64,000 nucleotides of DNA from Candidatus Versatilivorator sp. (GTDB lineage Bacteria > Acidobacteriota > Terriglobia > Versatilivoradales > Versatilivoraceae), in assembly GCA_965207735.1 (NCBI GenBank), contig OZ242296.1, forward strand, positions 4,416,001 to 4,480,000. Reading direction: 5' to 3'. Below are positions 30,966 through 59,511 of this stretch, piece by piece. The notes beneath the pieces were generated by a model. It was not told the DNA's origin and did not search any database. It saw only the letters and a list, made by a program, of their open reading frames with translations. A program made the translations under genes and the position numbers. Positions within the stretch are counted from its first letter, which is position 1. Every line of letters starts with the position of its first letter.

Positions 30966-30999
30966 CTCGAACTCCCTCTCATCTCACCGGTGGAGGCCA

Positions 31000-31057
31000 T
31001 TCTACACTCTCCACTCTCCACTCTCCACTCATCACTCATCACTCTCCACTCTCCACT
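31000..31057. repeat. Heptamer tandem repeat (CTCTCCA)3(CTCATCA)2(CTCTCCA)2
   Basis: Read directly; seven units at 31007-31055 plus a degenerate unit, in a divergent intergenic region. Confidence 0.9.
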
Positions 31058-33361: not shown

Positions 33362-34262
33362 CTTGTCTGAAACAAACGACAAAAGACAAAGAAAAAGACT
33401 TGTCCACGAAGGAGCACGAAGAACGACGAAGGGGCACTAAGGGGCTGAGGTTGGCCGCGACGGGATACCAAGGTCGCGAAGGGATTGTCGATTTCTGATT
33501 GTTTCACCCTCGGATGATCTGCCCGGCAGGGCAGGGGCCCGGCTTGCCTGAAACAACCGACAAACGACAAAAGATAAAAGACTTATCCACCAAGGGGCAC
33601 GAAGAACGACGAAGGGGCACTAAGGGGCTGAGGTTGGTCGCGACGGGGTACCAATGTTCGCGAAGGGTTGGTCGATTTCCGATTGTTTCACTCTATGTAT
33701 GATCCGCACACCAGGGCGGGGGCCCGGCTTGCCTGAAACAACCGACAAGAGACAAAAGAAAAAGACTTATCCACGAAGACACACGAAGGACAACGAAGGA
33801 CACAAGGGACAAAGAGGATTTGTCCGCGAAGAAGCAACAAGGACCGCGGCCGAGCCAGTGGGGGGCTTCCGACCCCATCGTGATTTAAGGAGATCATTAA
33901 CATCGATGCACAGGATTCACAGGATTCTTCAGGAAACGGCTGGCTTCTACTGCCGGGAATCCGCAAATCCGCACCGGATCATCGCCCGAGTTGGCTTCTG
34001 GTGCAGGAAGCTCTCGTCCTGTTAATCCTGTGCATCCTGTGCATCCATGTTCAATTCTTAGTCCTTCTCGATTGATCTTCCCCGTGGCGGGCCTTGGCCG
34101 TGCCCAACGCCCCGATTCCCAGTCAGCGTCCCGTGCAGCGGCCTCTGGTCCTATTAATCCTGTCTCTTTCCAAAACGCAAACAGCTGGCTGTTTCTCCTC
34201 TGAATGATCCGCACGGCAGGGCGGGGGCCCGGCTTGTCTGAAACAACCGACAAAAGACAAAG
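33362..34262 (-). repeat. Family A ~180-bp repeat tandem array (continues at 35750-35970 beyond the IS)
   Basis: Units begin CTTG(C/T)CTGAAACAA at 33362, 33543, 33728 and 34233. Confidence 0.9.
33898..34053. repeat. Family B inverted-repeat element (ACAT.GATG.ACAGGAT..ACAGGAT ... ATCCTGTGCATCCTGT.CATCCATGTT)
   Basis: Inverted arms built from 9-mer units; second copy at 40773-40983. Confidence 0.75.
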
Positions 34263-35749
34263 GAGCCTTTTGCAAAATTCGGAATCGGGCATGACATTGG
34301 GCTGGCAACAGTGATGTTCCGGCGGTGACTACCCAGCTGCAAAGACCCTTTTGAAGGAAAAAGCCCGAATCTGATGGCCGGATGGCCAGCGGTCGCCGGA
34401 CGCAGGCACAGCTTACCCTCTCCCGGCCTTGAGGCGGGCGAACCTGCTGTGCGGTTGGGGGTGGCAACCCGGTCTTCAGAGCGTCAGGCGCATCAACTGA
34501 TCCACCGTCAGGGCCAGAATGCCGAACATCAGGTGGCACCTCACCTTGTCGGGGCCGCGAACCCTCACCTGCCTCCCGCCAAACTCCTCCTTGAGCCGTC
34601 CGTTGACCCGCTCCACCGTCGAGCGTTCCCGGTAGCGCCGCGCCTCGGGAGTCACTTGGCCGATACAGCGCCGGGCCAGTGCCTCCCGCTTCCGCTCGGC
34701 TTTCAAGGTAGCTCTTCGGCGGGGGTTGACGTCAATAATCGGCACATGCCCCAGCTTCTCACTGAAGGCCCGGATCTCCGGCGCATCGTAGGCGCTGTCC
34801 ATCAAGTCGTAGAGACTCTCGACCCGCCTTGCCGTCAGCGTCGCCAGCGGAATGGCTGCCTGAGAGTCATGCACCGAGGCCGAGGTCAGCAGACAACTGA
34901 CCGGAATCCCGCCGTCAATGGCGTCGAGGTGTAGCTTGTAGCCGGTCCAGCTCTCCTGATGCCCCTTGGCGTTGCGCTTGACGCCGATGTCGCAGGCCTT
35001 GGGCAACTCCTTCAACATTTCCTCCAGCGTCATCGACCCCTGCCGCTCCAGCCGGCTCAACCGCTTGGGCCGTCGCTCGCCCTTCGGCGGCCGGCCCCGC
35101 CGGCGTTTCCGCTTGGCCTCCGGCGCAGCCTTGGCCGCTGGCTTTTCCCGTCCCGCAATCGCCGTCGAGTCCCTCGACACATGCCCCGCCAAGTGGCCCT
35201 TCAGCGTCTCCTCCAGCAATGCCTCGTGCAAACGCCCCGGCAGGTCGCTCTCAGCGAATTCCGCAAAGGCCCGCGAGAAGGTCGACTCGCTCGGTACCTC
35301 CCACGCCCTCTCCCAGCCGCACAGCCGCCGCAGCCTCCCCTCACTCCTCAGCCGCTCCACCAATCCCCGCGTGGTCGCCACCTCCAGCATCGACTTCGCC
35401 AGATAGGCTCGCGCCAGCACTGCCCGATCCTCCAGCGGCCGGCCACGCCAGCCCCGACTGTAAGGCAGCAACTCCTCCACCCGCACCAACTCCAATACCT
35501 GCACCAGCCGCTGGTAACGCTCTCCCAGAGGCCCCAAAACTTCCTCCAGCAGGGGAAACAGCTCTCGTTGAAACCGGAACCAGTGTCGTGATAGGGTTTC
35601 CCTAAGGGGCAAGTTCCACCTCCGTTCATCATGTGGTTCAGACACCTTCATGATACAACAGACAGTGGTCTTGCCCCTCCTTCCACCTGCCCTCCTTGAT
35701 CTTTCCCCACGTGAAAATTCCCGCTATCTGCGAATTTTGCAAAAGGCTC
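34263..35749 (-). mobile_element. IS5/IS1182-like insertion sequence, 1487 bp
   Basis: Perfect 19-bp TIRs GAGCCTTTTGCAAAATTCG / CGAATTTTGCAAAAGGCTC; 4-bp target duplication AAAG; removing it restores a family A repeat. Confidence 0.9.
34476..35651 (-). CDS. DDE transposase (IS5/IS1182-like)
   Basis: VPSESTFSR, RDSTAI, GYKLH, MDSAYD and RSTVERVNGRLKE motifs. Confidence 0.92.
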   Translation of the reverse strand: MKVSEPHDERRWNLPLRETLSRHWFRFQRELFPLLEEVLGPLGERYQRLVQVLELVRVEELLPYSRGWRGRPLEDRAVLARAYLAKSMLEVATTRGLVERLRSEGRLRRLCGWERAWEVPSESTFSRAFAEFAESDLPGRLHEALLEETLKGHLAGHVSRDSTAIAGREKPAAKAAPEAKRKRRRGRPPKGERRPKRLSRLERQGSMTLEEMLKELPKACDIGVKRNAKGHQESWTGYKLHLDAIDGGIPVSCLLTSASVHDSQAAIPLATLTARRVESLYDLMDSAYDAPEIRAFSEKLGHVPIIDVNPRRRATLKAERKREALARRCIGQVTPEARRYRERSTVERVNGRLKEEFGGRQVRVRGPDKVRCHLMFGILALTVDQLMRLTL

Positions 35750-36146
35750 AAAGAAAAAGACTTTTCCACGAAGGGGCACGAAGAACGACGAAGGGGCACT
35801 AAGGCGCTGAGGTGAATTGCAACGGGGTACCAAGTTCGCGAAGGGATGATCGATTTCTGATTGTTTCACTCTATGTATGATCCGCACACCAGGGCGGGGG
35901 CGGGACTTGCCTGAAACAAACGAAAAAAGACAAAAGAAAACGAGTTATCCACGAAGGGACACGAATGAACACCAATTGACGGATTGATGAGGTGTTGATT
36001 GGGGGGTGTGACCACCGATATTGAGGGGTTATCTAACACGGACACGAAGTCATTCCAAGGTGACAAAGTTGCAGAAGCATTATGATGCCGCTTGTCGCTT
36101 GAGTGAGTCCACCTGGATTCGTGTGTATTCGTGTCCATTGGTGGTT
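35750..36146 (-). repeat. Family A repeat continuation plus CACGAA/TTCGTG-type inverted 9-mer arms
   Basis: 35750-35960 matches family A; ACACGAATGAACACCAAT at ~35959 is loosely mirrored by ATTCGTGTGTATTCGTGTCCATTGGTG at ~36117-36143. Confidence 0.75.
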
Positions 36147-36400
36147 CGACTTCATTGAGTGATCGCCCGTTTTTCCTCAAATGAACCGCACGACAGGGCG
36201 TGGGCAGGACCGATTGGGATTCGCGGGATTCGGGTGGTGTCGCCCTGAGGCGCCACTGCAGTCCGTCCCTCCAGTCCCCGGAATCCATGCTACCATTTTC
36301 CCCTGGCGACCCCGTCCGTTGCCCAAGAAGTGAATCGGCGGCGGCCGCCGATTCTCCTTCCAACACCCGTTCGACCCGGAGGTTGGTCAGACCGCCCACC

Positions 36401-40508: not shown

Positions 40509-41105
40509 GCTTGCCTGAAACACCTGAAACAAACGAAAAAAGACAAAAGAAAAAGAGCTATCCACGAAGGGACACGAAGAACGACGAAGGGCCACTAAGG
40601 CGTTGAGGTTCACCGCGACGGGATGCCAAGGTCGCGAAAAGACGGGTCGATTTCTGATTGTTTCCCTCCCGTATGATCCGCCCGGCAGGGCGGGGGCCTC
40701 GCTTGCCTGAAACAAACGGCGCGCCTAGTAGCGGGAAACCGGTTCAAATTCAAGCATGAGTTGAGGGTTTATTGACATGGATGGACAGGATGCACAGGAT
40801 TATTGGGCGAAAGCTTCCACCGTCTTGCGCTCAACCATCGCCCCGGTTTCAACCAGGATTCCAAATCCCGCTCCCGAGCTCCTGGAACCCCTCGAAGACG
40901 GACCCGATCATTGAGCGAGTCCGCTCGCTGTGCGGCAGCGTCTCGCCCTGATTATCCTGTGCATCCTGTCCATCCATGTTCAATAATCCGTGAATCCGGA
41001 TTCACGGGACAGAGTCCTTGCGCCCGATAGGCCATGAAGATTTGTTGTTTCATTCTCGTATGATCCGCCCCGCCGTCGGGGGCGGGGGCGGAACTTACCT
41101 GAACT
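40509..41105 (-). repeat. Family A array: one standard unit plus one unit with a different interior that includes a family B element
   Basis: Junction motifs at 40510-40531, 40658-40715 and 41046-41104. Confidence 0.82.
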
Positions 41106-56030: not shown

Positions 56031-57196
56031 GAGGGCCCGGCCGTGCGGATCACACAAGAGTGAAACAATCGAAAATCGGCCATCCTTTCGCGACCTTGGC
56101 ATCCCGTCGCGGTTAACCTCAACGCCTTGGTGGCCTTTCGTCGTCCTTCTTGTCCCTTCGTGGATAGCTCCTTTTTCTTTTGTTTCAGGAGAGCCGATCT
56201 CCGGTGCCTCGCGCTTTCGGCAATCTGCTGTCGCCGCCTTCGCGGCTCGACCTGGAGCTACCCCTTTCCATGGGCTCACGCCCACGGCTACCTGCTGCCG
56301 CCGCTCCGCGGCTCGATGGATCGCCCGGGCGTTCGCCCGGGATTTCTTATTGCCAACAAGTGTCGCCCCCGCCCTGTCGTGCGGATCATACGAGAGCAAA
56401 ACAATCAGAAATCGATCATCCCTTCGCAACCTTGGTACCCCGTCGCGGTTAACCTCAGCGCCTTAGTGCCCCTTCGTGGTCCTTCGTGGATCACTCTTTT
56501 TCTTTTGTCTTTTGTCGGTTGTTTCAGGCAAGTTCCGCCCCCGCCCTGCCGTGCGGATCATTCGAGAGTGAAACAATCAGAAATCGACAATCCTTTCGCG
56601 AACTTGGTATCCCGTCGCGGTTAACCTCAGCGCCTTCGTGTCCCTTCGTGGTCCTTCGTGCCCCTTCGTGGATAAGTCTTTTTCTTTGTCTTTTGTCGGT
56701 TGTTTCAGGCAAGCGAGGCCCCCGCCCCCCACGACGGGGCGGATCATTCGAAGGTGAAGAAACAGGGTTGTTTCAGACAAGCCGGGCCCCCGCTTTGCCG
56801 TGCGGATCATACATAGAGTGAAACAATTGGAAATCGACCATCCCTTCGCGACCTTGATACCCCGTCGCGGTCAACCTCAGCGCCTTCGTGCCCCTTCGTC
56901 GTTCTTCGTGCCCCTTCGTGGATAAGTTTTTTGTCTTTTGTCTTTTTTCGGTTGTTTCAGACAAGCCGGACCCCCGCCCTGTCGCGCGGATCATACGAGA
57001 ATGAAACAATCAGAAATCGACAATCCCTTCGCGAACTTGGCACCCCGTCGCGGTTAACCTCAGCGCCTTAGTGCCCCTTCGTGGTCCTTCGTGCCCCTTC
57101 GTGGATAAGTCTTTTTCTTTTGTCTCTTGTCGTTTGTTTCAGGCAAGTCCCGCCCCCGCCCCCCACGACGGGCGGATCATTCGAGGGTGAAACAAC
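56031..57196 (+). repeat. Family A head-to-tail array (about 6 units plus the head of a 7th)
   Basis: Unit ends GTTTCAG(G/A)CAAG at 56532, 56713, 56781, 56965 and 57147. Confidence 0.92.
56225..56315. repeat. REP-like palindromic element (TGTCGCCGCCTTCGCGGCTC ... CCATGGGCTCACGCCCACGGCTA ... TGCCGCCGCTCCGCGGCTC)
   Basis: Two directly repeated hairpins flanking a central hairpin; resembles REP elements linked to Y1 transposases. Confidence 0.6.
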
Positions 57197-57222
57197 GGAT
57201 CATTGTGAAAGAATAAGCACCT

Positions 57223-57384
57223 GGCGAGACTCCGGCAGCTACGCCCCGTTCCAGCATTGGTGCCCCGTGCCCCAAGACAAGTCTGGGTCCGAGCAGGTCA
57301 TCATTCATTAGTGAGGCTTCCCGGGAAGCTCTCCTCAAGGCAAGAATCCGAACGACCACGCCAACTCGGGCCGGAGCCCTCGCC
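57223..57384 (+). ncRNA. Candidate IS110 bridge RNA
   Basis: Closing stem GGCGAG-A-CTCCGGC / GCCGGAG-CC-CTCGCC with internal hairpins; lies upstream of the transposase, as known for IS110-group bridge RNAs. Confidence 0.55.
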
Positions 57385-57402
57385 CTGGAGGAGGCCAATC
57401 TC

Positions 57403-58809
57403 ATGCAAAAGAGCAGGAAAGTCAACACGAAGGCGAAGAAGACCCCGAAGAAGAAGCGCAGCCGTTCGACAGCCTTGTCGCGGATCCACCCCGAGGTGGC
57501 AGGGATCGACCTGGGGAGTCGGGAGCACTGGGTGTGCGCTCCGGAGGTGACCCCAGGGAAGCCGAACGTGCGCACCTTCGGCACCACCATGGAGCAGTTG
57601 CAGCAACTGGCCGACTGGTTGCTGGAGCAAGGGGTGGAGTCGGTGGCGATGGAGAGCACCAACGTGTATTGGATTCCCCTCTACGAACTGCTGGAGTCCT
57701 GCGGCATCGAGGTCTTGCTGGTCAACGCCCGGCAGTTGCGCTACGTTCCGGGCCGCAAGACCGACATGCGGGACTGCCAGTGGATCCAGTTGCTGCACAG
57801 TTGCGGCTTGCTGCGGGGATCCTTCCGTCCGCACGAGGCGATCGTCCGGGTTCGGACCCTGCACCGGCAACTGAGCACTCTGGGGGCCGAGAGTACCCGC
57901 TTTGTGCAGTGGATGCAGAAGGCGCTGGATCAGATGAACGTCCAGATCCATCGTGCGGTCACCGATCTGACCGGTCAGACGGGGATGGCGATCGTGCGGG
58001 CGATTGTCGACGGCGAACGGGACCCGGTCCGTCTGGCGGGTCTGCGGGACCGACGGTGCAAGAAGTCCAGCCGGGAGTTTGCCGAGCACCTCAGAGGCAA
58101 CTGGCGAGAAGAGCATCTGTTCAACCTCAAGTCGGCGCTGAAGCTCTACGACATGACTCAACGCGAGATTGCGGCCTATGAGGCCCGCATCCTGGAGGAA
58201 ATCCAGGCGCTGCAACCGGTGGAGCGCCACGACCAGCCCGTGCCGAAGCATCCCAATGCGATCAAGGAAAAGGCGATTCGCCGCCGCGGTGGGCACCACC
58301 TGCGCACCGAACTGTGGCGCTTTGCCGGAGTCGATCTGACGCGTATCGACGGCATCGGCACCGAAGCGGCCCTGACCCTGCTGACTGAGGCCGGCCTCGA
58401 CCTGACGGCCTTCCCCTCGGAGAAGCACTTTGTATCCTGGCTGCGCCTGGCTCCAAAAACGGCCGTCTCCGCAGGCAAGCCGCTCCACTACAAGAAGGCC
58501 AACAGCACCGGGTCTACTCGCGCCGCCGCCGTCCTGCGCATGGCAGCCGTCTCTCTGAAGCACTCCAAGACCGCTCTGGGGGCCGCCTTCCGTCGCAAGG
58601 CCCGCCACAAGGGATGGAGTGTCGCCGTCTTCTCCATGGCTCGCCGGCTGGCCGTTCTCGTCTACCGCATGCTGCGCTACGGCCAGGACTACATCGACAT
58701 CGGGGAAGCGTGCTACGAGGACCGGTTCCGGCGACGACGCCTCGCGGGCCTCAAAGATGCCGCTAAGTCTCTTGGTTTCAACCTGGTTCCACAAATCGCA
58801 GCCGCTTGA
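57403..58809 (+). CDS. IS110-family (DEDD) transposase/recombinase
   Basis: AGIDLGS, AMESTNVYW and KTDMRDC (DEDD motif); C-terminal IDGIG...F.SWL.LAP...SAGK. Confidence 0.95.
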   Translation: MQKSRKVNTKAKKTPKKKRSRSTALSRIHPEVAGIDLGSREHWVCAPEVTPGKPNVRTFGTTMEQLQQLADWLLEQGVESVAMESTNVYWIPLYELLESCGIEVLLVNARQLRYVPGRKTDMRDCQWIQLLHSCGLLRGSFRPHEAIVRVRTLHRQLSTLGAESTRFVQWMQKALDQMNVQIHRAVTDLTGQTGMAIVRAIVDGERDPVRLAGLRDRRCKKSSREFAEHLRGNWREEHLFNLKSALKLYDMTQREIAAYEARILEEIQALQPVERHDQPVPKHPNAIKEKAIRRRGGHHLRTELWRFAGVDLTRIDGIGTEAALTLLTEAGLDLTAFPSEKHFVSWLRLAPKTAVSAGKPLHYKKANSTGSTRAAAVLRMAAVSLKHSKTALGAAFRRKARHKGWSVAVFSMARRLAVLVYRMLRYGQDYIDIGEACYEDRFRRRRLAGLKDAAKSLGFNLVPQIAAA

Positions 58810-58860
58810 ACTGCGGGGTTGTTTCAGGCAAGCACCCCCCGTCCCCTACGAGGGGCCGGA

Positions 58861-59511
58861 TCAGCGCCGCCGCAAGAGAATATAGAGGGCTCCGCCGCCT
58901 CCGTCTGCGAGACGAGCCGATGCATAGGCGATGACGTGACGGCTCATGCGCCGGGTGTCCAGCCATTTCGACAGCCTTTCCTTCAATGTCGGCCGACCCT
59001 CCCTCGAGTGGTTTCCCCGCCCGTGAACCACCCGTACGCATCCATGGCCCTGCTTGAGGCTGGAATGGATGAAATCCTCGAAGGCTTTCCTGGCCTCGGT
59101 GGCGACAAGTCCGTGCAGATCGAGGTGAGCCTGTACCGAAAAACGCCCCTTCCTCAGGCTGCCGATCCAGCGGCGGCCCTCGGGATGCGGTGTCCCCTCC
59201 AGGTATTCTCCACTCATGGTCAAGTCGAAACGTCCCTTCCCGGAGACAAACTCCTGTAGCAAGCGCAACCCTTCCTCCTCGTCGTCAATGGGACCCGGGA
59301 TTTCGAGCACCGGAGTCGCCCGGGATGGAGCGGAACTCCAACCCAGGGGAGCCACCTCCCGCATGGACCGGGCGAACAATTGGTCGTCGCTGAGGGTCTC
59401 GGGCAATCCGACCGGGGCCTTCGCCTTTTCCGGAACTGCCACGGGGGATCGCCGACGAATCCGAGCCAATTCGGCAAACGACTTGAAGGCTCGATAGGCG
59501 GGCTTCTTCAT
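58861..59511 (-). CDS. Smr/MutS-related domain endonuclease
   Basis: LDLHGL, VVHGRGNHS and DGGGGALYILL motifs. Confidence 0.92.
   Translation of the reverse strand: MKKPAYRAFKSFAELARIRRRSPVAVPEKAKAPVGLPETLSDDQLFARSMREVAPLGWSSAPSRATPVLEIPGPIDDEEEGLRLLQEFVSGKGRFDLTMSGEYLEGTPHPEGRRWIGSLRKGRFSVQAHLDLHGLVATEARKAFEDFIHSSLKQGHGCVRVVHGRGNHSREGRPTLKERLSKWLDTRRMSRHVIAYASARLADGGGGALYILLRRR

Follow-up and report, generated by a model that had tools for sequence, protein, structure and literature searches.

The stretch of DNA analysed here (the window; 64,000 nucleotides, positions 4416001–4480000 of the Candidatus Versatilivorator sp. genome G000, within a single 5.26-Mb contig) holds three arrays of short non-coding repeat units, one of which, in the gap between ilvD and Smr, also contains an insertion sequence (IS) of the IS110 group. 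A complete unit opens with a left end (head) and closes with a right end (tail). This work concerns the relation between these units, the resident IS110 and its predicted bridge RNA.

In the array that holds the IS (Table 1), the unit ends that a first-pass annotation had placed at 56532, 56713, 56781, 56965, and 57147 are found at those positions, although the last of them reads TTTGTTTC and not GTTGTTTC. The end of the IS at 58818–58832, the minus-strand ends at 33362 and 40510, and the 68-bp stub at 56714–56781 are likewise real. Two heads needed correction. The first one, at 56031, is present but decayed, and the unit head said to follow the IS is head-like sequence (58833–58863) but not a complete head, being truncated and without TGAAAC; its final GGATCA, which overlaps the Smr stop codon, is present too in the empty sites of several relatives. 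An extra degenerate junction, AACAAG followed by a head, lies at 56360 behind a segment matching the Rfam family Acido-Lenti-1, and the compound junction of this segment recurs elsewhere in G000.

Table 1. Features of the three arrays and of the resident IS110 element (window coordinates).
Feature	Position	Strand	Basis
Oldest, decayed array unit: truncated head, standard body, degenerate tail GGAGAG	56031–56193	+	Sequence; same unit at this site in congener G002
Repeat segment with Acido-Lenti-1 match (56268–56313), ending in degenerate target AACAAG	56194–56360	+	Rfam RF01687, 42.1 bits
Non-autonomous unit, 172 bp	56361–56532	+	Corresponding second unit in G002
Non-autonomous unit, 181 bp	56533–56713	+	
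Minimal unit, 68 bp, left end joined almost directly to right end	56714–56781	+	
Non-autonomous unit, 184 bp	56782–56965	+	
Non-autonomous unit, 182 bp; last bases GTTTCAGGCAAG, the putative target of the IS insertion	56966–57147	+	
Autonomous IS110 element, 1685 bp, one of 10 copies (97–100% identical)	57148–58832	+	Alignment of all 10 copies with flanks
Left end (head)	57148–57193	+	Spacing conserved across related elements
Head: 8-nt spacer, then hairpin	57148–57155, 57156–57175		
Head: guide-matched internal site ATCATTCG; after a 4-nt spacer, inverted repeat TGAAAC	57176–57183, 57188–57193		
Predicted bridge RNA, two internal loops	57223–57384	+	Profile matches, consensus fold of 61 rows
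Target guide G1 (AAGACAAG+T; A/G variant at 57277)	57274–57282	+	Matches left flank
Second donor guide D5 (ATCATTCA), same-sense copy of internal left-end site	57300–57307	+	
Donor guide G2 (AAGGCAAG; G/A variant at 57340), copy of right end	57337–57344	+	
IS110 DEDD recombinase, 468 aa	57403–58809	+	Pfam PF01548 and PF02371; NCBIfam NF033542 above cut-off
Right end (tail): GTTTCA 58821–58826, 4 nt, core AG 58831–58832	58810–58832	+	
Truncated head-like remnant overlapping Smr stop codon	58833–58863	+	
Second array; one 182-bp unit with nested DDE-type IS (open reading frame 34476–35651); outer left limit approximate	33362–36215	-	
Third array, two units, inserted exactly after AG	40510–41093	-	Empty site in G002

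Ends shared by the resident IS110 and the repeat units

The recombinase of the element belongs to the IS110 group by its DEDD RuvC-like and Transposase_20 domains, scores 222 bits against NF033542 (cut-off 140), and has no PDB match by sequence. Residues D36, E84, D121, and D124, which we take to be catalytic, are invariant in 21 relatives. Elements of the IS1111 group carry their RNA downstream of the gene and have long subterminal inverted repeats; here, the RNA lies upstream of the gene, the right end measures 23 bp, and the inverted repeat 5–8 bp.

All 10 copies of the IS in G000 start at the same base (equivalent to 57148), end in GTTTCAG[G/A]CAAG, and are preceded directly by a unit tail. 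They span the equivalent of 57148–58832 with ends common to the units, which bears out the proposal that the IS sits in register as one unit of the array. Four copies with identical proteins stand behind different tails and before different flanks, and are therefore separate insertions. Contigs of three public sequencing runs diverge directly behind 58833. Five congeners contribute 16 further full copies at 89–97% identity, plus nine copies of a sister element at 79%; loci with 92–98% identical proteins (Terriglobia or Candidatus Versatilivorator records) enter the family analysis and stand outside these congener counts. The first-pass annotation had considered that other copies might end before the motif, but GTTTCA-NNNN-AG is kept as the right end in 10/10 copies here and in 24/25 congener copies, the sole exception (L106) having lost its right end. 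The motif is the element's own end and also its target, for which the predicted bridge RNA offers an explanation. One full copy (L101, in congener G005) has the 3' part of another copy's transposase gene directly behind its right end.

The end motif also lies far above chance in G000. There are 205 exact GTTTCAG[GA]CAAG motifs, and a structured scan (whose head finder missed or misplaced some heads) recovers 241 heads, of which 185 have exactly 8 nt between AG and the hairpin, 115 direct tail–head junctions, and 291 tails with at most one mismatch on the two strands, against seven heads and four tails on one strand of a shuffled genome. The ends group into 217 clusters, 70 of which hold at least two tails and the largest seven. 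About 240–290 non-coding units in G000 thus share both ends with the IS110. Most are close to 182 bp (149 near-full-length standard units), 14 are of 60–79 bp, and other repeats, for instance long inverted arms, are found in the larger ones, with arrays mixing the different types. As in miniature inverted-repeat transposable elements (MITEs), both ends are common with an autonomous IS of the same genome, and the units are short, devoid of a transposase, high in copy number, and polymorphic between genomes.

Among the 44 interiors longer than 230 bp that were clustered, the only open reading frames of more than 180 codons in those above 450 bp are IS110 and a nested DDE transposase (short reading frames were not searched against libraries). 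Non-IS110 units of 1673 bp were examined as possible gene cassettes and rejected, being 182-bp units with a nested DDE-type IS that has 44 copies in the genome. In the window, this IS (34476–35651, minus strand; 391 aa) sits in the T-rich tract of a 182-bp unit, and its best NCBIfam matches, IS1182 and IS5, are all below cut-off. Three IS110 copies sit behind units carrying an end of this DDE-type IS.

Guides of the predicted bridge RNA and proposed self-targeting

The region upstream of the recombinase gene (57223–57384) repeats the end motif twice. An RNA profile built from 37 parsed metagenome elements matches every upstream region (114/114) in relatives whose identity is at least 53% and none (0/22) in those below 53%. 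The fold predicted from the alignment has an outer stem and two internal loops; the fold of the single sequence is no better than that of shuffled sequences (z 1.65), so the predicted structure rests on the alignment. Among the 34 copies with an intact end, 33 have a donor guide G2 identical to their own right end, in both the A and the G form. In the family tests, which take one element per 85% cluster and compare with permuted pairs, G2 matches the right end at 7.47 of 8 positions against 6.19 (n = 53 clusters) and the target guide G1 matches the left flank at 6.50 against 4.92 (n = 54). When the left end is located by structure, blind to the guides, G1 agrees with the flank at 6/6 positions in 41/48 clusters and at 5/6 in the other 7/48, 14 of the 62 clusters being excluded as giving no structural site. 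The base after G1 is identical to the element's first base in 42/46 clusters. Computationally, therefore, this is a two-loop left-end RNA whose loops covary with target and donor.

Three related IS110 elements (L227, L228, and L229), which lie inside IS3-like sequence, have left flanks ending in AAAAAAC instead of AG, and their G1 also reads TTAAAAAAC; the core may differ in this branch.

The covariation of the guides with end and flank bears on the idea that the units are host repeats, akin to repetitive extragenic palindromes (REPs) or bacterial interspersed mosaic elements (BIMEs), that the IS110 merely targets, the IS having inserted inside a 60-bp unit and the shared motif being target DNA. 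In its favour, IS110 elements such as ISPpu9 and ISPpu10 target REPs, the minimal 60-bp unit looks like an IS with its middle removed, and congener G009, discussed below, is rich in junctions without a transposase. Nevertheless, G2 covaries with the tail, which largely refutes the idea; related elements of other phyla have heads and tails of the same build (48/62 clusters), identical IS copies keep one head behind different tails, and the empty site described below is split at AG without whole units. Instead of repeats that are independent of IS ends and serve as target only, as expected for REPs or BIMEs, the ends here are IS ends across the clade (no search for REP-associated tyrosine transposases was made). 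A host origin of the units is therefore very improbable.

The target guide of the resident element reads G[A/G]CAAG, the same as G2, and all 26 copies of the 89–100% clade lie behind an end, three of these ends being degenerate. In 20/26 copies, the A/G variant present in G1 agrees with the flank base (Fisher p = 0.015; copies not independent). The 79% sister provides a natural control. It has the same kind of right end and a G2 of GACAAG, its G1 is GGTCAG, and it lands behind GGT[C/T]AG in 9/9 copies, mostly in heptamer repeats.

We assign a probability of roughly 85% to the following reading: the units are non-coding miniatures with the two ends of the resident IS110 and are likely mobilised by the recombinase of the IS together with its predicted bridge RNA; as the target guide has the sequence of the element's own right end, each insertion would recreate a landing site, and units and IS copies likely stack head to tail. 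The element or unit would be excised as an end-joined circle and would recombine at the AG core, with the recombinase and predicted RNA of the IS acting on the units in trans. Since the target guide would name the element's own right end, every insertion would regenerate the landing site, and head-to-tail stacking would follow. The proposal in the first-pass annotation that the units are non-autonomous IS110 substrates re-inserting at their own end is thus supported at the level of sequence. Directly visible are the shared ends, the AG core, the position of 10/10 copies behind a unit end, the covariation of guides with end and flank, and one clean pair of filled and empty sites.

The sister also separates this reading from one in which the arrays arise mainly from donor-to-donor (half-match) recombination, where two donor loops would join the right end carried by a circle to one in the chromosome, and G1 would resemble the end by coincidence. 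With the same right end but another G1, the sister lies directly behind an end in 0/9 copies; moreover, the end-like flanks of L038, L056, L063, L149, and L178 match G1 rather than G2, and the G1 variant follows the flank base as stated above. We hold donor-to-donor recombination to be improbable as the main route, although donor-only half-match activity has been reported for IS621 (10.64898/2026.08.31.748434), repeat-unit boundaries beside IS110 elements have been described as retaining one donor match (10.64898/2026.08.14.744561), and L032, with a G1 of CCCTAG, lies behind an end of its own type. Also in favour of that route, 10/10 copies following full ends is above what a 7-mer predicts. 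Outside long open reading frames of G000, only 152 of 448 AGRCAAG sites are end-like, and a further preference is thus needed; it may perhaps consist in a protein contact with GTTTC. Across the clade, the association between guide similarity and an end-like flank is weak (7/12 against 12/50, p = 0.03, not independent).

Pairs of IS110 elements are found elsewhere. An Opitutales record (L149–L160 and L184) holds two sister IS110s with arrays; the G1 of one, GGTCAG, is the right end of the other, which itself lands behind GTTTCACAT[T/C]AG ends. The GGTCAG element thus appears, from its guide, to target the ends of its sister. Two IS110 elements also stand head to tail in Caballeronia sp. SBC2 (L224), Nostoc sp. 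C052 (L225), and Burkholderia vietnamiensis G4 (L226), and in L224 and L226 the G1 of the downstream element resembles the right end of the upstream one. These are cultured bacteria and hence convenient for experiments.

Array growth and distribution

Comparison with relatives, as proposed in the first-pass annotation, gives one exact insertion. G002 lacks the array at 40510–41093, its empty site reads GTTCAGGTAAG followed by CGCAAA, and the two units of the window are inserted at that AG with nothing else duplicated, that is, at a dinucleotide core without a longer target duplication. The second array of the window (33362–36215) is absent or different in five congeners. The gap between ilvD and Smr measures 96–126 bp in 11/13 congeners, 604 bp in G002, which holds the first two units only, 643 bp in G010, where there is another insert, and 2883 bp in G000; the array of G000 has therefore grown at its 3' side.

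Adjacent units are never identical (0/39 pairs), only one pair is less than 2% apart, and their mean distance is 0.116, compared with 0.134 over all pairs. Separate insertions are therefore the likely mode of array growth. A standard unit (n = 149) has a closer nearest relative when it stands behind an intact tail (0.050) than otherwise (0.085, p = 3e-9). These distances, together with the mixture of unit types within arrays, make it highly unlikely that arrays formed by local tandem duplication or as rolling-circle multimers of one unit, an origin to which a perfect head-to-tail IS dimer in G013 (L104) and the truncated heads behind about 11 terminal tails would lend some support. The 70 heads of G000 that are not behind an intact tail follow GGCAAG (15), AACAAG (11), GGTAAG (10), GACAAG (5), or rarer forms, and the internal left-end site of the units reads ATCATACA in 41/138, a form found in the head of the 79% sister. 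Given these varied flank forms and the presence of the sister's head form, several related elements have probably moved units over time.

The junction pattern occurs in 13/14 genomes of the genus and in 0/27 others searched. One of the carriers, the complete genome of G009, holds 117 junctions, and G011 holds 26, neither with a close transposase match by protein or profile. The first-pass annotation had named repeats abundant in genomes without related IS110s as evidence against its proposal, and G009 is such a genome; at the same time, each of the two genomes keeps a piece of the RNA, and in G009 a relic left end (L217, 1490–1730, minus strand) retains nearly the whole bridge RNA, with a G1 of GACAAG and without a transposase, which indicates that the IS was once there. 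We read these sequences as elements lost after the units had spread.

Several observations weigh against the reading proposed above, the strongest of which, as regards present dependence of the units on the IS, is the state of G009 and G011. No end-joined joint of an IS circle is present in the contigs of four runs over the IS (contigs drop rare forms), and run contigs over the array contain only repeat-derived joints. RNA run X15 covers part of the IS110 without giving start, strand, or level. The units are diverged (median 13%, with only two identical pairs among 149), which lends no support to present-day mobility, and a paired comparison of 5' and 3' unit age is not significant (21 against 11 of 39, p = 0.14). 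Guidance by a 7-mer alone makes it unlikely that 10/10 copies would lie behind full ends, so the reading requires a further determinant. One copy (L099) is an exception to the rule on G2 and the right end, and the 5' side of the target loop gave no sign of a second target guide when compared with right flank, left flank, and head in both senses (|z| < 1.4). The outer ends of the array that holds the IS are not clean, about 55 bp of host spacer being missing in G000 and G002; the head behind the IS is truncated; and at the third locus compared, the site in G005 (L213) has an unexplained target duplication of about 12 bp. Of 169 terminal tails, 19 have NCAAG behind them and about 11, as counted by eye, have a truncated head there; neither is explained. 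Finally, the arrays are cassette-like in layout, as first described, but no gene cargo was found in them apart from the nested DDE-type IS.

Insertion at an upstream AG was considered as a source of the NCAAG after tails and rejected, as the upstream heads in the 19 cases lack the predicted shortened left junction. One 16-bp end duplication is likewise unexplained.

The donor site and related systems

The 5' side of the donor loop holds a third guide, D5, which is a same-sense copy of an 8-nt site within the left end, beyond the hairpin. In a fixed register, D5 matches this guide-blind site at 7.06 of 8 positions against 5.41 in permutations (maximum of 5000, 5.88), and at six or more positions in 46/48 clusters. 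Over 24 tree-independent pairs (168 cells), 26 changes are concordant, seven positions changed in both otherwise, seven in the RNA only, and 11 in the DNA only. The match is with the sense and not the antisense strand (z 13.9 against 1.2), unlike the four-guide, opposite-strand pairing of the IS621 type, and for the 5' side of the target loop no match emerged in any comparison. The spacing from core to stem is 8 nt in 29/46 clusters and 7–9 nt in 36, that from stem to site end is 7–9 nt and that from site to GAAAC 3–5 nt in 46/46, while the stem sequence is free. Among 138 junctions of G000, one stem pair switches from C-G (105) to T-A (22), with one C-A and three T-G, and L018 has GTCTC and GAGAC where others have GTTTC and GAAAC in the right and left end. 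By eye, the same anatomy and covariation are present at about 45% identity in plasmids of Caballeronia, Burkholderia, and Nostoc, each with two IS110 elements head to tail.

A same-strand guide beyond a hairpin suggests a donor that folds back as a single strand. On the antisense strand of the junction of right and left end, GTTTCA would pair with TGAAAC outside and the GC hairpin would form inside, leaving a bubble of which G2 would pair one side and D5 the other, restoring an IS621-like geometry. This model fits reports of single-strand excision and top-strand integration (10.64898/2026.08.31.748434; 10.1101/2025.10.25.684509). Two points tell against it. The outer stem persists in energy-minimum folds, but the inner register varies among them, and a left-end inverted-repeat mutant of ISPpu9 still gave minicircles in a PCR assay (PMC12288879), which also counts against the wider reading. 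A cruciform in duplex DNA is an alternative that the data accommodate as well. On balance, we lean slightly towards a donor read as a folded strand. With odds only a little better than even, a broad IS110 clade, including the elements on plasmids of cultured Caballeronia, Burkholderia, and Nostoc, would recognise a single-stranded donor folded in the manner of attC, with an outer inverted repeat, a bubble of 8 nt, and a free inner hairpin, and would read its target by one short guide; drift of that guide to the element's own right end would yield a self-regenerating, RNA-addressed array builder accepting any DNA between two short ends, together below 70 bp.

In integron arrays, as in the model proposed here, units are separated by a recombination junction and added by a site-specific recombinase, and attC is used as a folded single strand. 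The arrays described here differ in having an RNA-guided DEDD enzyme instead of a tyrosine integrase, a junction that is not of the attC type, and a distribution over many loci, and no gene cassettes were found between the junctions.

The closest described system is ISPpu9 with MITEPpu9 (the ssr9 module) from Pseudomonas putida KT2440, which is likewise of the IS110 group with an AG core (PMC12288879). MITEPpu9 is also a non-autonomous module with the end boxes of the IS, found beside it or alone and sometimes in tandem, and its circles depend on the ISPpu9 transposase. ISPpu9 also has a hairpin just inside the left end, and its right end is likewise of the form GTTT(G/C)A-N4-AG, of which the left end contains an inverted copy. 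The likeness is drawn from ends, core, and layout, not from kinship of the transposases. However, ISPpu9 targets host REPs and has eight MITE copies, whereas here there are about 240–290 ends, several types of interior, and a target guide equal to the element's own end. ISPpu9 does not rely on a hybrid promoter at the circle junction (PMC12288879); promoter scans of the present element gave nothing convincing, the best sigma-70-like matches (8/12 and 7/12) lying wholly in the left end and the candidate spanning the circle junction reaching 6/12.

IS621 likewise has DEDD and Tnp domains, a long-left-end RNA with a target loop and then a donor loop, a two-base core, and a short subterminal inverted repeat, and the two sides of each of its loops pair with opposite strands next to the core (PMC11208160). 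In contrast, the present element has the opposite polarity, with AG on the sense strand. Its two donor guides are both copies in the same sense, of which one reads a site about 24–37 nt inward of the end, and a second target guide was not detected. Expanded IS110 loci also comprise tandem non-coding units (n = 468), tandem IS copies (n = 437), and one-sided donor matches at boundaries (10.64898/2026.08.14.744561); here, the target guide equals the right end, which predicts regeneration of the target, and the units are a family found throughout the genome. In ISPpu10, DNA secondary structure similarly aids recognition, and donors consisting of left end, cargo, and right end are mobilised in trans (10.64898/2026.03.19.712850), but the stem-loop is in the target and pairing is of the canonical opposite-strand type, whereas the present stem-loop belongs to the donor, in which it is predicted to place a distant site in register.

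Accordingly, the AG core, the shared end boxes, the transposase-dependent module circles (ISPpu9/MITEPpu9), and bulk tandem repeats beside IS110 elements are already known. A target guide equal to the donor end, or a same-strand donor guide beyond a hairpin, was not found in the consulted portions of the IS110 literature, including 10.64898/2026.03.19.712850, 10.64898/2026.10.21.760802, PMC11187229, and PMC13626964, with preprint supplements and subscription papers outside this scope. A guide RNA addressed to the end of its own element, with the sister as natural control, would give a sequence-level cause for a class of bacterial repeat arrays. For tandem repeats beside IS110, it provides a rule readable from sequence, in which equality of target and donor guide predicts stacking. 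A fold-back donor, if true, bears on the question of single- or double-stranded IS110 intermediates, and a minimal donor with serial insertion of units at one site could be of use in the engineering of bridge recombinases.

Other repeats accompany the arrays. The Acido-Lenti-1 match at 56268–56313 lies inside a compound repeat that recurs before AACAAG/head junctions, and this 'sRNA' may travel as part of mobile repeat arrays. The interiors 33742–34190 and 40716–41045, whose existence is confirmed, were considered as further cases of Acido-Lenti-1 and rejected, as they carry a different inverted repeat with long arms (33899–34051 and 40775–40979; arms of 28–29 nt, separated by 97 and 147 nt). 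This is a REPIN-like repeat of a separate kind, enclosed by the unit ends. Heptamer arrays of the (AGAGTGG)n type are represented in the window at 30997–31057 and number 82 in the genome, many of them followed by a conserved segment (..GATCGAC/TGCG..AAGCAT..). The IS110 was rejected as their maker, as only 14/82 lie beside a head or tail; the heptamers seem to be a repeat in their own right and a target of the GGTCAG sister.

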